Positions 45,448 to 53,372 of a DNA stretch of 64,000 nt are shown here, piece by piece. Made by a program: the position numbers and the translations under genes. How positions within the stretch are numbered: the first letter of the stretch is position 1; each line of letters starts with the position of its first letter. Origin of the DNA: Escherichia coli 042 (GTDB lineage: Bacteria; Pseudomonadota; Gammaproteobacteria; Enterobacterales; Enterobacteriaceae); assembly GCF_000027125.1 (NCBI RefSeq), contig NC_017626.1. The stretch is one strand, 5' to 3'. The notes under the pieces are model-generated. The model was not told the origin of the DNA. It saw nothing but the letters and a program-made list of their open reading frames with translations, and searched no databases.

Positions 45448-46941
45448 TATCTCACTCCATGTCGCCTCTCTTATAACAAAATCGTCTCAATTTTATTTTG
45501 TCACTAAGTGATTATCAAATGTTTTTGTTGTGATTTGTTTATGTTTTTAAATGTCTATGTCATGTTATCAGTGTTTTTATATAAAGATACATTGATGTTT
45601 TTATGATGGTGAAAAATCATATTTTCTTTTATATTCATTTGGTTATGATTGTTTGTTCTGCATTTGGGGGATGACAGAAAAGAATGGGCTGTGTTGATCA
45701 CATGCGCCGTATGCGCTGTCCAGGTTACAGCGCACCTCAATATTCAGTGTTTTCCTGTTGACTGGCATTGTTAATCTTATGTTTTTGGTTTTGTTTTATT
45801 GTGTGGTTGTGAATGTTGTGTTTGGTTTGATGGTTGAGAAAGAAAAAAGAAGACTATGATGCACTAATCAGGAAATATTTTCGACGCCGGTTGAGTTAAA
45901 AGAACAGATAGAGTGGACAGGTGTTGTGTTAATAGTTTACGGCTGACAGCATTCTTATTTTAATAACAGGTGTTATTATTTATGGATTTATACAGACGAT
46001 ACTCCCGCTAAATAGTCAGGTGATGATGGTCGTTGAGTGGTTTTATAAGCTACGTATAGCTCTGTAAGACTTATTAATTCAACGATGACTACCGTTTATT
46101 GATATACATGTATTCGGGAAATGTCATAAAAAATGTCACGTTGTTTGCAGAATCTTTTGTTTTTTAGTTTTTGATACGCAATGACTAAGCAGGAGGACTC
46201 ACTTTGTTTGTATGCTGACCGTGATCGTCAGTGGAGATGAACAATTGACTCTTACACTGAAAAATATACTCTCTTGTTTTTTATCGTTTATCTGCATGAA
46301 ATAAATAATCTTCAGCATTTTTCATGTGAATTTCATCATCTTACCCTGAATGTTCATTTTATCAGTATGATATTCCTTTGTTTACTGATAAAATTAACCG
46401 ATAAATGTTCTTGTTAAGATTGCCAGAATGACAGTTTTTGCTGATTCCGTGCAATGGAAGAGATATTATATCATCTATTTAAGCAATAAGTTTAATACAA
46501 ATTTCAGAAGATGTGTTGGTGAGTTGATGACTAATTTTCAGAGGGGGATGGAAAAGTGTATGGAATCCCACAAAGAAAAAATCGTTATTGTTCAGTTGAC
46601 GTTTATTTCTGGGTGATGACTCCAGTCAGCAGAATATGTTTTTTTCGATGAATGACCCAATAACTTTTTCGTGAATTTCCACGGAGCATGAAAAGCAAAT
46701 CGTTTTCCGGTCCAGCCGTTTGATGTGGGAACGGGGGCAGATGGTGGTGCTCAATGCGCCGGGTAAATATCAATACGATTTGAGGAACCATTTGCTGGTT
46801 AATCTCTTTCCGATAGCATTGGATGCAGCAATCACTACATCCAACGTGAATAACCATGAATTGCACAGAAACAATATACCTGCGACCCTCTCCGGAAATT
46901 CCGGTATCACTGACTACGTACCGCCCGGGAGTGATTATGAA

Positions 46942-47541
46942 TCAACAGGCGTATAACAGGTACTCGTCAATCATCAGTTCAAGCTCGCGCTTTTCCCGTT
47001 TGCGCGCCACAGCCCAGCTTTCAAGTTCTGCGTGTGATTTATGCTTTAACTCTTCAGTCCAGGGCTGCATGGAGTGGGCGCACATCAGATCATACCAGCA
47101 CAGCCATATCAGGGTGTGGTAGAGATCGCGATCGTCAAAACGCCGGAGCAGACTGTTCAGCCTGTTTGCCAGTCGGCTTTCTCCCAGACGATGTAGTTCA
47201 CTGAGTAAAACACCACCCAGGTTAAAATGTGTAAGTAACATGATTTCATGAGTCTGAATGCTGGTCATTAACCCTTCCTGAATGGCAGGAATGAACGGTG
47301 GCGTTGCCGGGTTGACTACCTGATAGAGTCCCTGTGGTGCCACCGAGATGATGGTGCCTTTTTCCGGCAGAAAAAAGTGGGCCAGGGTCAGGCGATGATA
47401 ACCATGAAGATGCGGAGAGCCCATTCCGTGAGCGACAATAAACCGGGTTACACTTGCCATCCATTTCTGATGCTGGGTGAGCAGCAGATCACACCGGTTT
47501 TCAAGTTTTTGCATAATATTCTCTCCTTTAGCACGCAGCAA
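46942..47541 (-). CDS. Hypothetical protein (199 aa) downstream of alpA-like gene
   Basis: Co-oriented with and adjacent to the alpA-like ORF; function unknown. Confidence 0.5.
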   Translation of the reverse strand: MLRAKGENIMQKLENRCDLLLTQHQKWMASVTRFIVAHGMGSPHLHGYHRLTLAHFFLPEKGTIISVAPQGLYQVVNPATPPFIPAIQEGLMTSIQTHEIMLLTHFNLGGVLLSELHRLGESRLANRLNSLLRRFDDRDLYHTLIWLCWYDLMCAHSMQPWTEELKHKSHAELESWAVARKREKRELELMIDEYLLYAC

Positions 47542-47599
47542 AATGCCTCCGGAGGCCGGATAGTGTATTCGCTGCGGTTGAACGGGTAATGGTCAGGAA

Positions 47600-47806
47600 T
47601 TACGGACGGGATTGTGCAATACGCGCCTGCAACCAGGCTTCCACTTCACTTTTCAGCCATCGGGAGCTGCGGCCGAGTTTGATGGGGGCCGGAAAGGCAC
47701 CATCCTTGATGAGCTTGTAAAACCACTTATCGGTTAAGCCGGTCAGTTGAGTGATAAACGCCATGTCGACCATCTGGTCATCCATCAGCGAAACTGGGGT
47801 ATTCAT
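47600..47806 (-). CDS. alpA: AlpA-family phage regulatory protein (excisionase-like HTH)
   Basis: ORF 47600-47878; from the internal Met, MNTPVSLMDDQMVDMAFITQLTGLTDKWFYKLIKDGAFPAPIKLGRSSRWLKSEVEAWL matches the AlpA/Phage_AlpA HTH pattern. Confidence 0.7.
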   Translation of the reverse strand: MNTPVSLMDDQMVDMAFITQLTGLTDKWFYKLIKDGAFPAPIKLGRSSRWLKSEVEAWLQARIAQSRP

Positions 47807-48504
47807 GAAAATGTTCCTCCGGATGTTGTTAATCTCAACCGGCGTTGGTGATGAAAAACGCACCACCTTCACTGGCATAACAACCGGGGAGAAACGTAAA
47901 AAATGAGCAGGGGAATATTCCTGTCGGGAGATAAACAGGGAGCATGATGCTGGGATACCCGGTGGCTACCGCGAAACGATGTTTCTCGCGCGTACGCACG
48001 ACAGAGAAGGGATGATTTTCGGGAGGATGAGGGGAAGAACCGTCGTTCTTATAATTGCAGAGTTATTTACGGGGCGGTTACGGTGGGGCAGCTCGTGCCT
48101 TGTGGGCAGGGACAGGTATCACCGATGGGATAAGACTGTCTGATTGGTATTATAAATATATAAGAGAGATCAAACACATGAGTTCATATCTGTGAAATAA
48201 ACACTGTGAGTGTGATCAGTGGGTATGAGAACGCAGTAGCAACAGATTACGTTGTACTCACAGGGCTATCCCTGATAGCTGGCGTATAACCTGCGTATAT
48301 AAAACGTACCTGCAACACACGTGAACAGAGTGCATTAAGCATCCGTCTGAGCGGTAAACGTATCCGACCTGGTGAGTGACAGTCTGAGAGACCGGTTAAG
48401 TGGTGGTGCGGGAGTAATGAGTTTGGGGTGGGTACCAGAATGCCAGTCAGGTGCGGTATGCTGGCAGTATCACGTTAATTGCAGCATAAAGTGATGAGAG
48501 GCTA

Positions 48505-48717
48505 ATGGAAGTTAAAACCAAAGAAGACTGGCTGTATCAGTTCCGTCGTTGTTCATCCCGGGAGACGCTGGAAAAAGTGATTTCCCACACACGTTATAAA
48601 CTTACCCTTGCGGAGCTGGAAGCCTTCAACTCTGCGGTTGATCACCGACTGGCAGAACTAACCATGAACAAACTTTACGATCGCGTTCCGGCTTCTGTCT
48701 GGAAATATGTTACCTGA
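48505..48717 (+). CDS. hha: Hha/YmoA-family nucleoid-associated modulator paralogue
   Basis: 70 aa; ...[56 protein letters not shown] aligns with core Hha (RRCQTIDTLERVIEK...[25 protein letters not shown]). Confidence 0.8.
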   Translation: [70 protein letters not shown]

Positions 48718-49333
48718 ACGTTCGGTAATCACAGCGGTATTGTGCCGGGCGTTATATGCCTGTGATTCTTTTGCTCTTCTCTGGTTGCTGCAAAGCTGAA
48801 TATGTTCCTGTTGTTGGAGGCCGAGGTAATACCGGGAACGTTAAGCGGTATAGCGACAACAAAGAATTCGAAATCAAAAGGGAATGGTGTACGGAGGTGC
48901 GGGCGGTAATGGGCCGATTTTCGGGCATTACCGACCTCTGCTGAGGTTTTCTCGTATTAGCCGGGGATCCGGTGCGTTGAATATTGACGGCATAAACCGA
49001 CAGGCAGAGTCAGCACCAGCAGTGACGTCAGTAGACAGCGCCGACGATCGGTATTCCGGTAATGGGCAACATCCGTATTATGAGTAATTGCCTTACCACA
49101 ATCCCTGCACACCGTTTTGTGTATCACCATAGCTCCCTCCTCACAGTCTTATCTGTAACCGGTTTTTGGCATTAAAAAAACAACGCTGAAAATTCAGCCG
49201 TCAGTCCGGAGACGACAATCGGGTTATCACAGAGTGCCTGAGATATTGCCCGGTTGGAGGTCACTTCAGGGACTCTGCGCATTTTTTACGGCGTGGTTAT
49301 TCCGTATGAACGAAACCATACGGAGATTTAACC

Positions 49334-49903
49334 ATGACATACGAGTACAACCCCTTCTGGCAACAACGTATCCGTGAGACGGTGCTGCGCGCACTGGATG
49401 TTCATCCCCGTCTGACGGCATTGCGGATTGACCTGCGTCTCCCGGATGTACCGGCAGCAACTGACGCAGCAGTGATATCCCGCTTCATCAATGCCCTGAA
49501 AGCCCGAATCGATGCTTATCAGAAGCGTAAGCGCCGTGAAGGCAAACGCGTGCATCCCACAACCCTGCATTACGTCTGGGCCCGGGAGTTTGGGGAGTGC
49601 AAAGGTAAAAAACACTATCACCTGATGCTGCTGGTCAACCGGGATACCTGGTGTCGTGCCGGCGATTACCGCGCTCCGGGATCACTGGCCGGGATGATTA
49701 AACAGGCGTGGTGCAGTGCCCTGGGAGTGGATACCGGAGATCATACCACGCTGGCGCATTTTCCGGTCAGGCCGGCGGTGTGGCTGGAACGCGATGATGA
49801 CACCGGCTTTCAGCAGGTGCTGGAGCGTGCTGACTATCTGGCGAAGGAGAGTACCAAAGCTTACGGCACCGGTGAGCGCAACTTTGGCTGCAGTCGTGGC
49901 TGA
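49334..49903 (+). CDS. YagK/YfjJ-family protein
   Basis: 189 aa; MTYEYNPFWQQRIRETVLRALDVHPRLTALRIDLRLPD, typical of the YagK/YfjJ family found in CP4-6/CP4-57-type elements. Confidence 0.7.
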   Translation: MTYEYNPFWQQRIRETVLRALDVHPRLTALRIDLRLPDVPAATDAAVISRFINALKARIDAYQKRKRREGKRVHPTTLHYVWAREFGECKGKKHYHLMLLVNRDTWCRAGDYRAPGSLAGMIKQAWCSALGVDTGDHTTLAHFPVRPAVWLERDDDTGFQQVLERADYLAKESTKAYGTGERNFGCSRG

Positions 49904-50064
49904 GCCCGACAGACGACTTATCTGACCTTAGTGTGATGACGTGTTCACAGCGACCACACTGATTTTCCCTTCTGAGACTGAACTGAAAACCGCCATTCAC
50001 ACCCTGACCACGCTGCCCGTACCGGGACGGCTGTTGCCTGCGTGTCGTCTGGCGGCTGAGGAAT

Positions 50065-50454
50065 ATGACGATGTACGCAAAATCCTTTCTCGCACTTGAT
50101 GGCAACGGACGTCTGACCGGTGCCCGTACCGCACAGACAGCGCCATACGATCGTTACACCTGCCACCTCTGTGGCAGTGCTCTCAGATACCACCCGCAAT
50201 ACGACACTGAACGTCCCTGGTTTGAACACACTGACGACGGGCTGACTGAGCATGGTCATGAGTGCCCTTATGTCAGACCGGAGCGCAGAGAAATACTGTT
50301 GATTAAACGCTTACGGCAATTCGTACCGGACGCCTTACCCGTAGTGCGTAAAGCCAGCTGGCACTGCAGACAATGTCACCACGATTATTATGGGGAGCAG
50401 TACTGCACACACTGTCATACAGGGCGCTTCAGTGAGGAGGTGGTTGCAGAATGA
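50065..50454 (+). CDS. Cys/His-rich zinc-ribbon-like protein (129 aa)
   Basis: Motifs CHLCGSAL...WFEH...HECPY...WHCRQCHHDYYGEQYCTHCHTG. Confidence 0.5.
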   Translation: MTMYAKSFLALDGNGRLTGARTAQTAPYDRYTCHLCGSALRYHPQYDTERPWFEHTDDGLTEHGHECPYVRPERREILLIKRLRQFVPDALPVVRKASWHCRQCHHDYYGEQYCTHCHTGRFSEEVVAE

Positions 50455-50863
50455 ACGGTATAAAAACGGGGCTGGGATCACGCCGGGTGAGCACATTATC
50501 AGTGCCGATTCTGCGCTCAGCAGAAATATCCGGCATTGTTTCTGTCTTTCCTGTCGTGGCCGGTTGATTTTGCAGACAGATGCTCAGGGGGCGTGGTTTG
50601 AGCACGATTTACATGCCCTGAGCGCGCAACAGAAGGCGGCCTGCGTGGTGCTGAATCCGGAAAAATCCCATCCTTACATTGATGATATGGCGATGTTTTT
50701 ATCGCCATTACCTGTCGTGCTGGAGTGGCATTGTGTGATGTGCGGGCAGCATTTTTCCGGGAAAAAGTTCTGTGAAGCCTGTGGCACGGGGATTTATTGC
50801 AGAGCGGCATGTACGAAGTATGTTTACAGATACCAGCCAGATTTGCTCCGGGACCAGGAGTGA
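50390..50863 (+). CDS. Second zinc-ribbon-like paralogue; start unclear, possibly frameshifted
   Basis: Repeats the neighbour's pattern (CFCLSC...WFEH...WHCVMCGQHF..FCEACGTG.YC) in a different frame. The only in-frame ATG (50390) lies 65 nt inside the upstream ORF; a strong SD plus ATG at ~50450 is in a third frame. Confidence 0.4.
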   Translation: MGSSTAHTVIQGASVRRWLQNERYKNGAGITPGEHIISADSALSRNIRHCFCLSCRGRLILQTDAQGAWFEHDLHALSAQQKAACVVLNPEKSHPYIDDMAMFLSPLPVVLEWHCVMCGQHFSGKKFCEACGTGIYCRAACTKYVYRYQPDLLRDQE

Positions 50864-51135
50864 GGGAGATGCGACATAATTACTTGATCATGCCAGTCAT
50901 GCCCCTGCCGGATCCGGATGTGGTCCGGCGCTTTGTTCCGCGGACGGTGGCTCACTGGCTGTGTCTGCTGATGATCCTCTTTATGCGACATTCAGACAGG
51001 GGAGACATCGATAAACATCATCATCTGCGGGCAAATAGTTACACAGAATGATCATTGCTACCGGTTATGGCAAAACTTGGTGATGACCAGGTGAACCATC
51101 GGTGCTTCCGTTGATTCTTATGGACTGATAAAGTT

Positions 51136-51795
51136 TTGTCAGCTGAATCTTTATACGGAATGCTCTTCAGTATGCGTACACAAATTGACTATCTGGCGGA
51201 TAAATACTGTTTTACAGAACGGAACGAATCGCCCCGTCTTCGCCAGCAGTGGCAGGATGTTCTGGAGGAGTGCCGGCAGACAGAGGCCGGGCCAGAAGAA
51301 CGGCTGCGTATTGCACTGCTGAATGTGGATTACGTCACCAGTTTTGAACTGCCTTTTCGCTTGTTGCTTACCCGTACACCACAACTGATTGCTGCGCTGC
51401 GTGAAGAATGGGGAATCAGCCAGAAAAATGTGGTGTTTAACGATAAACGGTTTGGCTGCGTGTACAGCCTGAAGGCCAGCCTTTCTGGTGTGCCGGATAC
51501 ATTCCGGTATCATCTGTCTCATCGTATTCGTCGCGTGGTTGGGAATGAAAACACATCATTGCCATATCAGCAGGTTGCCCGGGAAGTGAAAGCGCCCCGT
51601 GAACGGCTGAAGTATGCACTGGAGGCGGGTTTACTGGTGACTGCACTGGACGGCCTGTTCTGGTTTGGCAGTCAGCGTATTGCGGCTGATGTTCTGAGGC
51701 TGAGAAAGGCCGGAATGCCGGTGGTGACCACGACCGTGGAGGTGCACGATAACCTGACAGGAACAACCCGCAAAGTACCGGCATACCATCTCTGA
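51136..51795 (+). CDS. Putative DNA-binding protein (219 aa), YagL/YfjR-like by position
   Basis: C-terminal HTH-like segment LPYQQVAREVKAPRERLKYALEAGLL; downstream of the yagK-like gene. Confidence 0.45.
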   Translation: MSAESLYGMLFSMRTQIDYLADKYCFTERNESPRLRQQWQDVLEECRQTEAGPEERLRIALLNVDYVTSFELPFRLLLTRTPQLIAALREEWGISQKNVVFNDKRFGCVYSLKASLSGVPDTFRYHLSHRIRRVVGNENTSLPYQQVAREVKAPRERLKYALEAGLLVTALDGLFWFGSQRIAADVLRLRKAGMPVVTTTVEVHDNLTGTTRKVPAYHL

Positions 51796-52176
51796 TACAA
51801 CCATCAGGGGGAATATTGCTCTGGCAGCAGCAGTACGACATTCTTTATACTTTATCCCCGTGCCTGAAAACATGTGCTAAGGAAACGGGAATGGCAAGGT
51901 CCGATTACGATATTATCAATCTGTCTCTGGAACATGAACTGAATGAGTGGCTGGCAGAGAGAGGTTATGCCGGACTGGTGGATAACCGGAACCGCCTGGC
52001 AGAGGTGGTTACCCGGAAATTGCAGGACAGCTTTTATATCAACGTTTCCTGGGATGCGCTGAACACAGCATACAGTGAACACCCGGAGTGGTTTTCAGGG
52101 CTTGTCTCCGGGGATGAGAATTAATAAGTGGATTATGCTGCCATCAGGCAATGTGATTGCCGGCAGGGATTTCGTT

Positions 52177-52368
52177 TTATTCTGTTTCTTCCCGGGGTTC
52201 GGGTTTGAATTTTCCCAGGAAGTTGTACATCGGTCGCATGCAGGGATGCGGATAGCCGTCCCGCATAAACACCACCCGGGTTTCCTCAACACTGGTCACG
52301 GTGACAAGCGCACCATGATCGTCTCTGTATCGCTGATTGATTTTCGGTAATGGAATATCTTCTGACAT
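52177..52368 (-). CDS. Small hypothetical protein (63 aa)
   Basis: Short ORF with plausible start, between the island regulator-like gene and the T6SS promoter; weak support. Confidence 0.3.
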   Translation of the reverse strand: MSEDIPLPKINQRYRDDHGALVTVTSVEETRVVFMRDGYPHPCMRPMYNFLGKFKPEPREETE

Positions 52369-52745
52369 AGATTTCAGAACGGTAACAGTTAACTAAATTT
52401 TCATGTGGTAGCACTGAATCAGGAGTCTCTGCCTCCTGATGTGTTTTGTTAATCTTCTGTTTTTACTAGAAATCCCCTCACTCCTTCTTTCATTGCATTT
52501 TGTTGGGCCCTTCCTCCATATCTTTCCCGCTTTCCAGAAATCACGTCAATGCTGCTGAAACTTTACTCATTGTGATTTTCAATGACTGAAATCAAGAAAA
52601 TACAGTGTTTATGTTAACTGGCTGTATCAAAAGTGTTTTGTGGAATAATTTTCTGTATTTTTACATTAACAATGGTTATAAGCTTTGAATATTCATTATT
52701 TTGCGACATTCCATAGAATAAAGTCCTGATTATTTGCATTATATC

Positions 52746-52798
52746 GATCGATGTATCTGTTATATTGAGATTTTTCAGATCTTCGTCCTATAATGATC
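52746..52798 (+). promoter_or_regulatory. T6SS promoter candidate: TATAAT -10 flanked by three GATC sites in an AT-rich Fur-box-like context
   Basis: GATC at 52746, 52778 and 52795; TATAAT at 52789-52794 abuts the third GATC; ataatgatcaaaatta resembles the Fur-box core; ~80 nt upstream of tssB. Confidence 0.6.
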
Positions 52799-52874
52799 AA
52801 AATTAAATCAGTGCACAAGGGGAGGCATCTGCGGTGATGGAACCCCTGAGATGCAGGTTTCACAGGAGAGAGCC

Positions 52875-53372
52875 ATGAGCAGTTCGTTTCAGAATGAAAT
52901 CCCGAAAGCAAGGGTAAATCTGAAATTAGACCTACATACGGGTGGTGGGCAGAAGAAAGTGGAGCTTCCGCTCAAACTTCTGGTTGCCGGTGATTTCAGT
53001 AACGGACAGGAAGAGCGTCCACTGTCAGAGCGTGTAAAAACGGATATTAATAAAAACAATTTTAATGATGTTCTGGCAGATATCTCCCCGTCTGTACATC
53101 TGAATGTGGAGAACACGCTTGCCGGTGATGGCTCTGAAGAGAGCATCAGCCTGACTTTCCGCAATATGAACGATTTCACGCCAGAGCAGGTCGCCCGACA
53201 GATTCCCCGTCTTAAAGCCATGCTGGCCATGCGTAGCCTTCTGCGGGACCTGAAAGCCAATCTGCTGGATAACGTGACTTTCCGTAAAGAGCTGGAAAAA
53301 ATTCTGCGTGACCCGGCACTGAGTCAGACGCTGCGTGATGAACTGCGTGCACTGGTGCCGGAAAAGGCGTGA
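52875..53372 (+). CDS. tssB: T6SS contractile sheath small subunit TssB
   Basis: ORF 52851-53372; from the internal Met, MSSSFQNEIPKARVNLKLDL...VELPLKLLVAGDF, a typical TssB/VipA N-terminus; RBS aggagag upstream. Confidence 0.93.
   Translation: MSSSFQNEIPKARVNLKLDLHTGGGQKKVELPLKLLVAGDFSNGQEERPLSERVKTDINKNNFNDVLADISPSVHLNVENTLAGDGSEESISLTFRNMNDFTPEQVARQIPRLKAMLAMRSLLRDLKANLLDNVTFRKELEKILRDPALSQTLRDELRALVPEKA

Follow-up and report, generated by a model that had tools for sequence, protein, structure and literature searches.

A recent one-base deletion very probably explains the split frame in an old tandem pair of putative zinc-ribbon genes of Escherichia coli

Two adjacent reading frames at positions 50065–50863 of a 64,000-nucleotide stretch of Escherichia coli DNA (hereafter referred to as the window) encode proteins with the same Cys/His-rich layout, and the second of them appears to have no start codon in its own frame behind the stop codon of the first. 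This arrangement raises the question of how the second copy is, or was, expressed; the initial annotation had offered a recent tandem duplication with a frameshift (a pseudogene or a sequencing error) and an unusual overlapping or recoded gene pair as possible answers. With a probability of roughly 0.93, we conclude that the two genes, ORF1 and ORF2, are an old pair of tandem paralogues, of which ORF2 was broken by the recent loss of one G in the lineage of strain 55989 and O104:H4, ORF1 being intact. The positions of the features concerned are compiled in Table 1.

The Cys/His architecture reported for both reading frames is real and its motifs had been located correctly. They read CHLC...WFEH...WHCRQC(x9)CTHCHTG in ORF1 and CLSC...WFEH...WHCVMC(x9)CEACGTG in ORF2, and the same two Pfam domains were detected in both, with E-values of 1e-30 (DUF7828) and 1.2e-8 (Zn_ribbon_11) for ORF1 and of 5.6e-21 and 1.4e-16, respectively, for ORF2 when read with its frame restored. 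BLASTP aligned the two proteins with 31% identity over 83 aa (E 1e-10), and by these scores their resemblance is far beyond chance.

With regard to the start codons, PGAP begins ORF1 at ATG 50071, 9 nt 3' of a GAGG, which fits the conserved MYAKSF N-terminus of the homologues; an alternative ATG is found upstream at 50065, and the gene ends with the TGA at 50452–50454. The long frame of ORF2 is open from ATG 50390 to TGA 50863, and ATG 50451 sits in a third frame. The initial annotation was right that the second copy lacks a usable in-frame start, the coordinates given for the ATG at 50390 inside ORF1 being correct, and the GAGGAGG with an ATG (50451) in a third frame that it had described is indeed present, opening only the 38-codon ORF. 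ATG 50390 is very probably not a gene start. In-frame TTG codons of ORF2 past the lesion described below lie 3' of the CxxC, so that their products would lack zinc site 1. In intact orthologues of ORF2, PGAP places the start at the same ATG as that at 50451, and the GAGGAGG Shine-Dalgarno sequence is unchanged across the four aligned alleles. From this Shine-Dalgarno sequence and the ATGA overlap, a layout typical of coupled translation, we infer, with reasonable confidence, that ORF1 and ORF2 are translationally coupled, and that ORF2 is probably translated normally by coupling to ORF1 through the ATGA.

Table 1. Features in and around the tandem pair, in window coordinates.
Feature	Position	Strand	Description	Basis
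AlpA-type HTH regulator	about 47600..47806	-	74-82% identity	tblastn; PGAP
YagK/YfjJ ('inovirus Gp2 family')	49334..49903	+	Upstream neighbour; conserved partner of the family in the other loci examined	
Small hypothetical ORF	49941-50099	+	Flanks the pair	PGAP
ORF1	50071..50454	+	Intact; 127-aa 'putative zinc ribbon protein' WP_000271022.1	PGAP, Pfam, AlphaFold2, dN/dS
ORF1, DUF7828	50074-50331	+	aa 2-87	Pfam
ORF1, Zn_ribbon_11	50350-50442	+	aa 94-124	Pfam
ORF1, predicted zinc site 1			C31/C34/H53/C65	Family invariant residues
ORF1, predicted zinc site 2			C99/C102/C112/C115	Family invariant residues
Mechanical 157-aa ORF	50390..50863	+	Begins at the sole in-frame ATG, 65 nt inside ORF1; without Shine-Dalgarno sequence; not called by PGAP	
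ORF2 Shine-Dalgarno GAGGAGG	50434..50440	+	Within the 3' end of ORF1, 10 nt 5' of ATG 50451	Read from the sequence
ATGA overlap	50451..50454	+	ORF2 ATG (50451-50453) over ORF1 TGA (50452-50454)	Sequence; PGAP starts of intact orthologues
Short frame opened by ATG 50451	50451..50567	+	38 codons, MNGIKTGLGSRRVSTLSVPILRSAEISGIVSVFPVVAG, TGA 50565-50567	ORF list
ORF2 pseudogene EC55989_RS17190	50451..50863	+	'putative zinc ribbon protein, frameshifted'	PGAP
Lesion	50474..50476	+	GGG here, GGGG in intact alleles; 1-nt deletion after ORF2 codon 8	Alignments; match lengths 491 vs 492 nt
G-restored ORF2, DUF7828	50472-50704	+	aa 8-85	Pfam
G-restored ORF2, Zn_ribbon_11	50711-50818	+	aa 88-123	Pfam
Small hypothetical ORF	50869-51051	+	Flanks the pair	PGAP

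Positions 49900–51100 matched E. coli 55989, many O104:H4 genomes and further strains with 100% identity. In the RefSeq record of 55989 (NC_011748.1), PGAP annotates an intact gene at 50071–50454 and a 'frameshifted' pseudogene at 50451–50863; as the latter feature starts at ATG 50451, public annotation already reads the junction as a frameshift. The lesion itself was located by aligning positions 50380–50870 with strains E500002, M19 and 042, in all three of which the second gene is intact according to PGAP. The sole gap in this alignment fell in the window, which reads CTGGGATC where the others read CTGGGGATC. A further (fifth) allele agreed with GGGG, and the four other E. coli alleles aligned all carry GGGG. 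The A run at 50462–50466 was ruled out as the site of the indel, which the alignment puts in the G run at 50474–50476.

Read in the zero frame from 50451, the window gives ATG AAC GGT ATA AAA ACG GGG CTG followed by GGA TCA..., and with the G restored the same eight codons are followed by GGG ATC... and the frame encodes 137 aa. This restored protein was residue-for-residue identical to the CDS translation of WP_032255455.1 from strain E500002. In line with the 'frameshifted' label of PGAP, the suggestion that a frameshift lies at the junction and has made a pseudogene of the second copy was borne out for this DNA, where one G of GGGG is gone. The orthologous loci of E500002, M19 and 042 supplied the intact counterpart, with ORF2 in a single frame.

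The distribution of the deletion was surveyed among 5,426 complete E. coli genomes. The identical 491-nt allele was found in 42 complete, separately deposited genomes, including 55989, more than ten O104:H4 assemblies, FORC and NCCP strains, NCTC9082 and environmental isolates. Ten further genomes were 99.8% identical over 492 nt; E500002, the only one of these that was aligned, differs solely by the extra G and is annotated as intact. The genomes of approximately 95% identity among the matches listed were also one base longer than the query. The additional base was likewise present, with one exception, in the listed matches across the site from a spread sample drawn from the 2,921 matching records. 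The exception of equal length, H51, has both genes annotated as intact and its indels are located elsewhere.

These counts bear directly on the possibility of a sequencing or assembly error, according to which the gene would be intact in the cell and the G would have been dropped from a homopolymer in the assembly. A length change of 1 nt in a short homopolymer is the commonest type of sequencing error, and a G run of only 3–4 is not especially error-prone. The recurrence of the same 491-nt allele in 42 separately deposited complete genomes, next to ten otherwise identical ones that carry the extra base, speaks against this explanation, which we consider highly improbable; the sequencing error envisaged at first reading can be set aside on these grounds. 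The deletion is real and specific to a lineage (55989/O104:H4 and relatives), and it is very recent, since no further change has accumulated.

The occurrence of both GGG and GGGG on otherwise identical sequence would also be expected if the G run were a contingency tract by which ORF2 is turned on or off in a reversible manner. Slippage-prone contingency tracts typically comprise 7 or more residues, and the 3–4 G found here are far below the length of the known ones. Moreover, all listed O104:H4 and 55989 matches were in one 491-nt state, with no mixture within the named lineage, and the more distant alleles were uniformly GGGG. The uniform state in the listed O104:H4 and 55989 matches, together with the shortness of the tract, argues against phase variation, to which we attach a very slight probability.

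A different explanation would keep ORF2 expressed in spite of the deletion, either by programmed or fortuitous -1 frameshifting soon after ATG 50451, for example by Lys-tRNA slippage on A AAA A at 50462–50466 to give MNGIKNGAGITPGEH..., or by initiation at ATG 50390. To read ORF2 in a strain with the deletion, a -1 shift is needed between 50451 and about 50535. The shift required is thus of the -1 type, a run of five A occupies codons 4–6 of the short frame, and the stranded frame is open from 50390. Further, the downstream RNA at 50468–50567, in the 5' part of ORF2, was predicted to form one long and unusually stable hairpin (-42.2 kcal/mol, z = -3.5, no shuffled sequence being as stable). 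However, the zero frame from 50451 to the codons of the CxxC contained no X XXY YYZ heptamer, and ATG 50390 is devoid of a purine-rich Shine-Dalgarno sequence and is not used by PGAP. Across five E. coli alleles the hairpin had 0 compensatory changes and several broken pairs, and covariation support was nil (the covariation term was positive); without such support, nothing marks it as a frameshift stimulator. If the hairpin has a role, it might be, for example, to modulate coupled translation. An Rfam scan of positions 46000–53000 returned no match.

The split-frame arrangement is not conserved either. The four other aligned alleles, as well as the length-matched matches, have one continuous frame, running in the aligned alleles from ATG 50451, and only the 42-genome clade has the split. 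Together with the missing slippery heptamer and the lack of a Shine-Dalgarno sequence at ATG 50390, this argues against the unusual overlapping or recoded gene pair proposed initially, and we regard continued expression of the interrupted ORF2 by either route as very unlikely. Small amounts of a near-native ORF2 product might still be made, through initiation at ATG 50390 or infrequent -1 slippage on the five A at 50462–50466.

The course of events that we favor, a one-G deletion in an old gene pair, is as follows, and no observation contradicted the frameshift on which it is built. Among the backbone genes of the CP4-like integrative islands found in Enterobacterales is an old tandem pair encoding proteins of approximately 130 aa, in each of which a C2HC module (DUF7828) at the N-terminus is followed by a C4 ribbon (Zn_ribbon_11) at the C-terminus. 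Where the alleles are intact, ORF2 initiates at ATG 50451 behind the GAGGAGG and over the ORF1 stop codon (ATGA). Upon loss of one G at 50474–50476 in the 55989/O104:H4 lineage and its relatives, ribosomes starting at 50451 pass out of the ORF2 frame behind its eighth codon and terminate once 38 codons have been read, and the rest of ORF2, otherwise identical to the intact allele, is stranded in the -1 frame with no usable start. The outcome is a very recent ORF2 pseudogene next to an intact ORF1.

The recent tandem duplication that had been inferred from the two copies did not withstand closer inspection. The proteins share only the 31% identity given above, no DNA-level repeat was found between ORF1 and ORF2, and tandem pairs with overlapping genes were also present elsewhere, once on a Klebsiella IncFIB/HI1B plasmid, where the overlap measures 13 nt, and once on a further contig (L006). 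Taken together, these observations indicate an old duplication, the frameshift being the only recent event. For ORF1, dN/dS among E. coli alleles was 0.09–0.10 (0.09 against M19), and for ORF2 it was 0.15–0.23, values that indicate purifying selection on both genes. Chimeric proteins were also encountered in the database: P0095 combines the N-terminal half of ORF1 with the C-terminal half of ORF2, and in P0050 and P0075 a paralogue of a third type is fused to the C-terminal half of ORF2. Many truncated versions of the family are likewise present in the protein database. Decay and recombination at the locus are evidently common in view of these chimeras and truncations, which point to frequent unequal recombination and decay in the tandem array.

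Both window proteins are full-length matches to the family defined by DUF7828 (PF25165) and Zn_ribbon_11 (PF11682, formerly DUF3279), whose members are named 'putative zinc ribbon protein' in RefSeq and 'Ybl85' in UniProt. All of the invariant Cys and His residues of the family are present in both ORFs (CxxC, F-x-H and a distal C, then W-x-CxxC...CxxC), and the genomic context of the pair matches that of other members. The two differ in that an uninterrupted frame behind a ribosome-binding site is found for ORF1 and, owing to the 1-nt deletion at 50474–50476 and the stop after 38 codons, not for ORF2. No function has been assigned to the family, so that belonging to it is uninformative as to mechanism. 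Several UniProt entries, e.g., A0A2H3MKC2, bear the name 'DNA-directed RNA polymerase, beta subunit/140 kD subunit', evidently a misannotation that has been propagated, the protein being a zinc-ribbon protein of 127 aa.

Conservation was analyzed in 41 diverse family members (ORF1 numbering). C31, C34, F51, H53, C99, C102, C112 and C115 were invariant, and C65, W97, G108 and G118 were conserved in at least 90%. This pattern of conserved Cys and His points to two sites, one of C2HC and one of C4 type. The structure predicted for ORF1 with AlphaFold2 was confident (mean pLDDT 88.4, pTM 0.59) and comprised an N-terminal beta-hairpin/knuckle domain, a helix at residues 70–84 and a C-terminal ribbon; a search for structural neighbors of the model gave none beyond generic zinc knuckles. 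On the basis of the conserved residues and of these zinc-knuckle matches to the model, two zinc ions are predicted, with reasonable confidence, to be bound per chain.

The family is small and, in these searches, was seen only in Enterobacterales. When 1.84 billion representative proteins were searched exhaustively with a profile, no more than 249 matched at E<=1e-3, and fragments accounted for many of these. Matches in AFDB and on plasmids came from Escherichia, Salmonella, Shigella, Klebsiella, Citrobacter, Enterobacter and Leclercia and, further, from Buttiauxella, Budvicia, Yersinia, Serratia, Pectobacterium, Raoultella and Moellerella. A tblastn search with ORF1 against 50,697 phage records gave no match, PADLOC and PHROGs returned 0 families for ORF1 or ORF2, and neither ORF had an NCBIfam match, even with the threshold relaxed to E<=10. 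Nothing relevant was retrieved from the literature for DUF7828, Zn_ribbon_11, DUF3279, Ybl85 or the locus names.

Two candidate relatives of the N-terminal module were considered. In CoiA, a short beta-hairpin, a CxxC, an aromatic-F-x-H motif and a distal Cys follow one another, a layout similar to that of DUF7828. When the 41 members were scanned with Pfam, CoiA_N (PF25164) matched 0 of them at E<=0.001 and 9 at E<=0.1, all sub-threshold (best i-Evalue 1.3e-3), and DUF7830 gave sub-threshold matches in 8. CoiA is described as carrying a small putative zinc finger N-terminal to a PD-(D/E)XK nuclease domain (bioRxiv 10.1101/2024.02.06.579203). The proteins of the present family differ from this in having a helix and a C4 zinc ribbon after the finger, and no nuclease domain. 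Distant kinship between DUF7828 and the N-terminal finger of CoiA, to which the sub-threshold matches point, is plausible but unproven. A profile search against PDB sequences placed only the baculoviral IAP repeat (BIR) at the top, with E-values of 0.09–0.7. The alignment covers the CxxC...W-x-E-H stretch, and the spacing from Cys to His in ORF2 is the same 16 residues. Kinship with BIR was rejected, as these E-values are not significant and structure comparison was unsupportive.

The genomic context was examined in four lookups of distant relatives and in one Klebsiella plasmid. In these five other loci, a YagK/YfjJ gene (REP_ORF2-G2P/'inovirus Gp2'), an alpA gene and the zinc-ribbon gene or genes follow one another on the same strand. 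In three of the four lookups, the zinc-ribbon gene(s) were divergent from some or all of the CP4-like backbone of GTPase, DUF932, antirestriction, RadC and CbeA/CbtA genes. The genes 3' of the zinc-ribbon gene(s) in the other loci were varied, with an integrase in two of them. On the Klebsiella plasmid NZ_CP110517.1, inovirus-Gp2-type (YagK/YfjJ-like) genes stand on either side of the pair (L016 6900–7466), a double flanking that hints at a functional link of the two families. Some related islands contain a single zinc-ribbon copy, and in K-12 CP4-57 no gene of the DUF7828/Zn_ribbon_11 family is annotated.

The window contains the same backbone in a rearranged order: CbtA/CbeA ... Ag43 ... GTPase (-), AlpA (-), an hha paralogue at 48505–48717 (+) and YagK at 49334–49903; 3' of the pair are a 60-aa ORF, an ECs1377-family protein and, from 52875, type VI secretion genes. 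Here AlpA lies approximately 1.5 kb upstream on the opposite strand, with the hha paralogue inserted between. From this displacement and inversion of AlpA and the hha insertion, we conclude that the regulatory module of the island has been rearranged. A remnant of AlpA was sought in the spacer between YagK and ORF1, and none was found.

The two small hypothetical ORFs that flank the pair had no family match in PADLOC or PHROGs. The first overlaps the start of ORF1 by 29 nt, and the second begins 5 nt past the ORF2 stop codon and may lose translational coupling through the frameshift. The gene for the ECs1377-family 'DNA-binding protein' at 51172–51795 (+) is intact here and has an internal stop in E500002 (L002 2294–2917), where ORF2 is intact; different backbone genes are decaying in different sublineages. 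Similar decay of island neighbors is represented in the window by an IS1 remnant and a DUF5983 fragment. Ordinary frameshift pseudogenes of E. coli islands likewise show a single-base indel in a short homopolymer with the rest unchanged and are flagged by PGAP, and nothing notable sets ORF2 apart from such lineage-specific cases.

As to what the proteins do, it is possible, though we hold this only tentatively, that they are small zinc-dependent binders of nucleic acid or of a protein partner and act in the regulatory or replication module linked to AlpA/YagK, perhaps forming a heterodimer in islands with two copies. The pI of the family is close to neutral (median 7.6), which does not specifically favor DNA binding, and the single-copy islands mean that a heterodimer is not obligatory. 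A more specific proposal, which we think doubtful, is that the pair would be an uncharacterized zinc-finger heterodimer with a CoiA_N-like N-domain, binding DNA, the YagK/YfjJ Rep-like protein or AlpA, and thereby controlling excision, replication or establishment of CP4-like islands in Enterobacterales. If this heterodimer reading were true, the loss of ORF2 in 55989/O104:H4 would alter the behavior of the island beside the type VI secretion cluster; a still more exotic variant would have infrequent -1 slippage on the five A yield a near-native ORF2 product.

The frame junction is already known, being marked as a frameshifted pseudogene in RefSeq/PGAP, and no new biology is needed to explain this one-base deletion. 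What is now documented is the exact lesion and its distribution, with 42 genomes carrying the deletion and 10 otherwise identical ones that are one base longer. The pair is an old unit under purifying selection rather than a recent duplicate. Its family belongs to a YagK/YfjJ–AlpA–zinc-ribbon module that is conserved in CP4-like islands, which makes it a concrete knock-out candidate for studies of island excision or replication.
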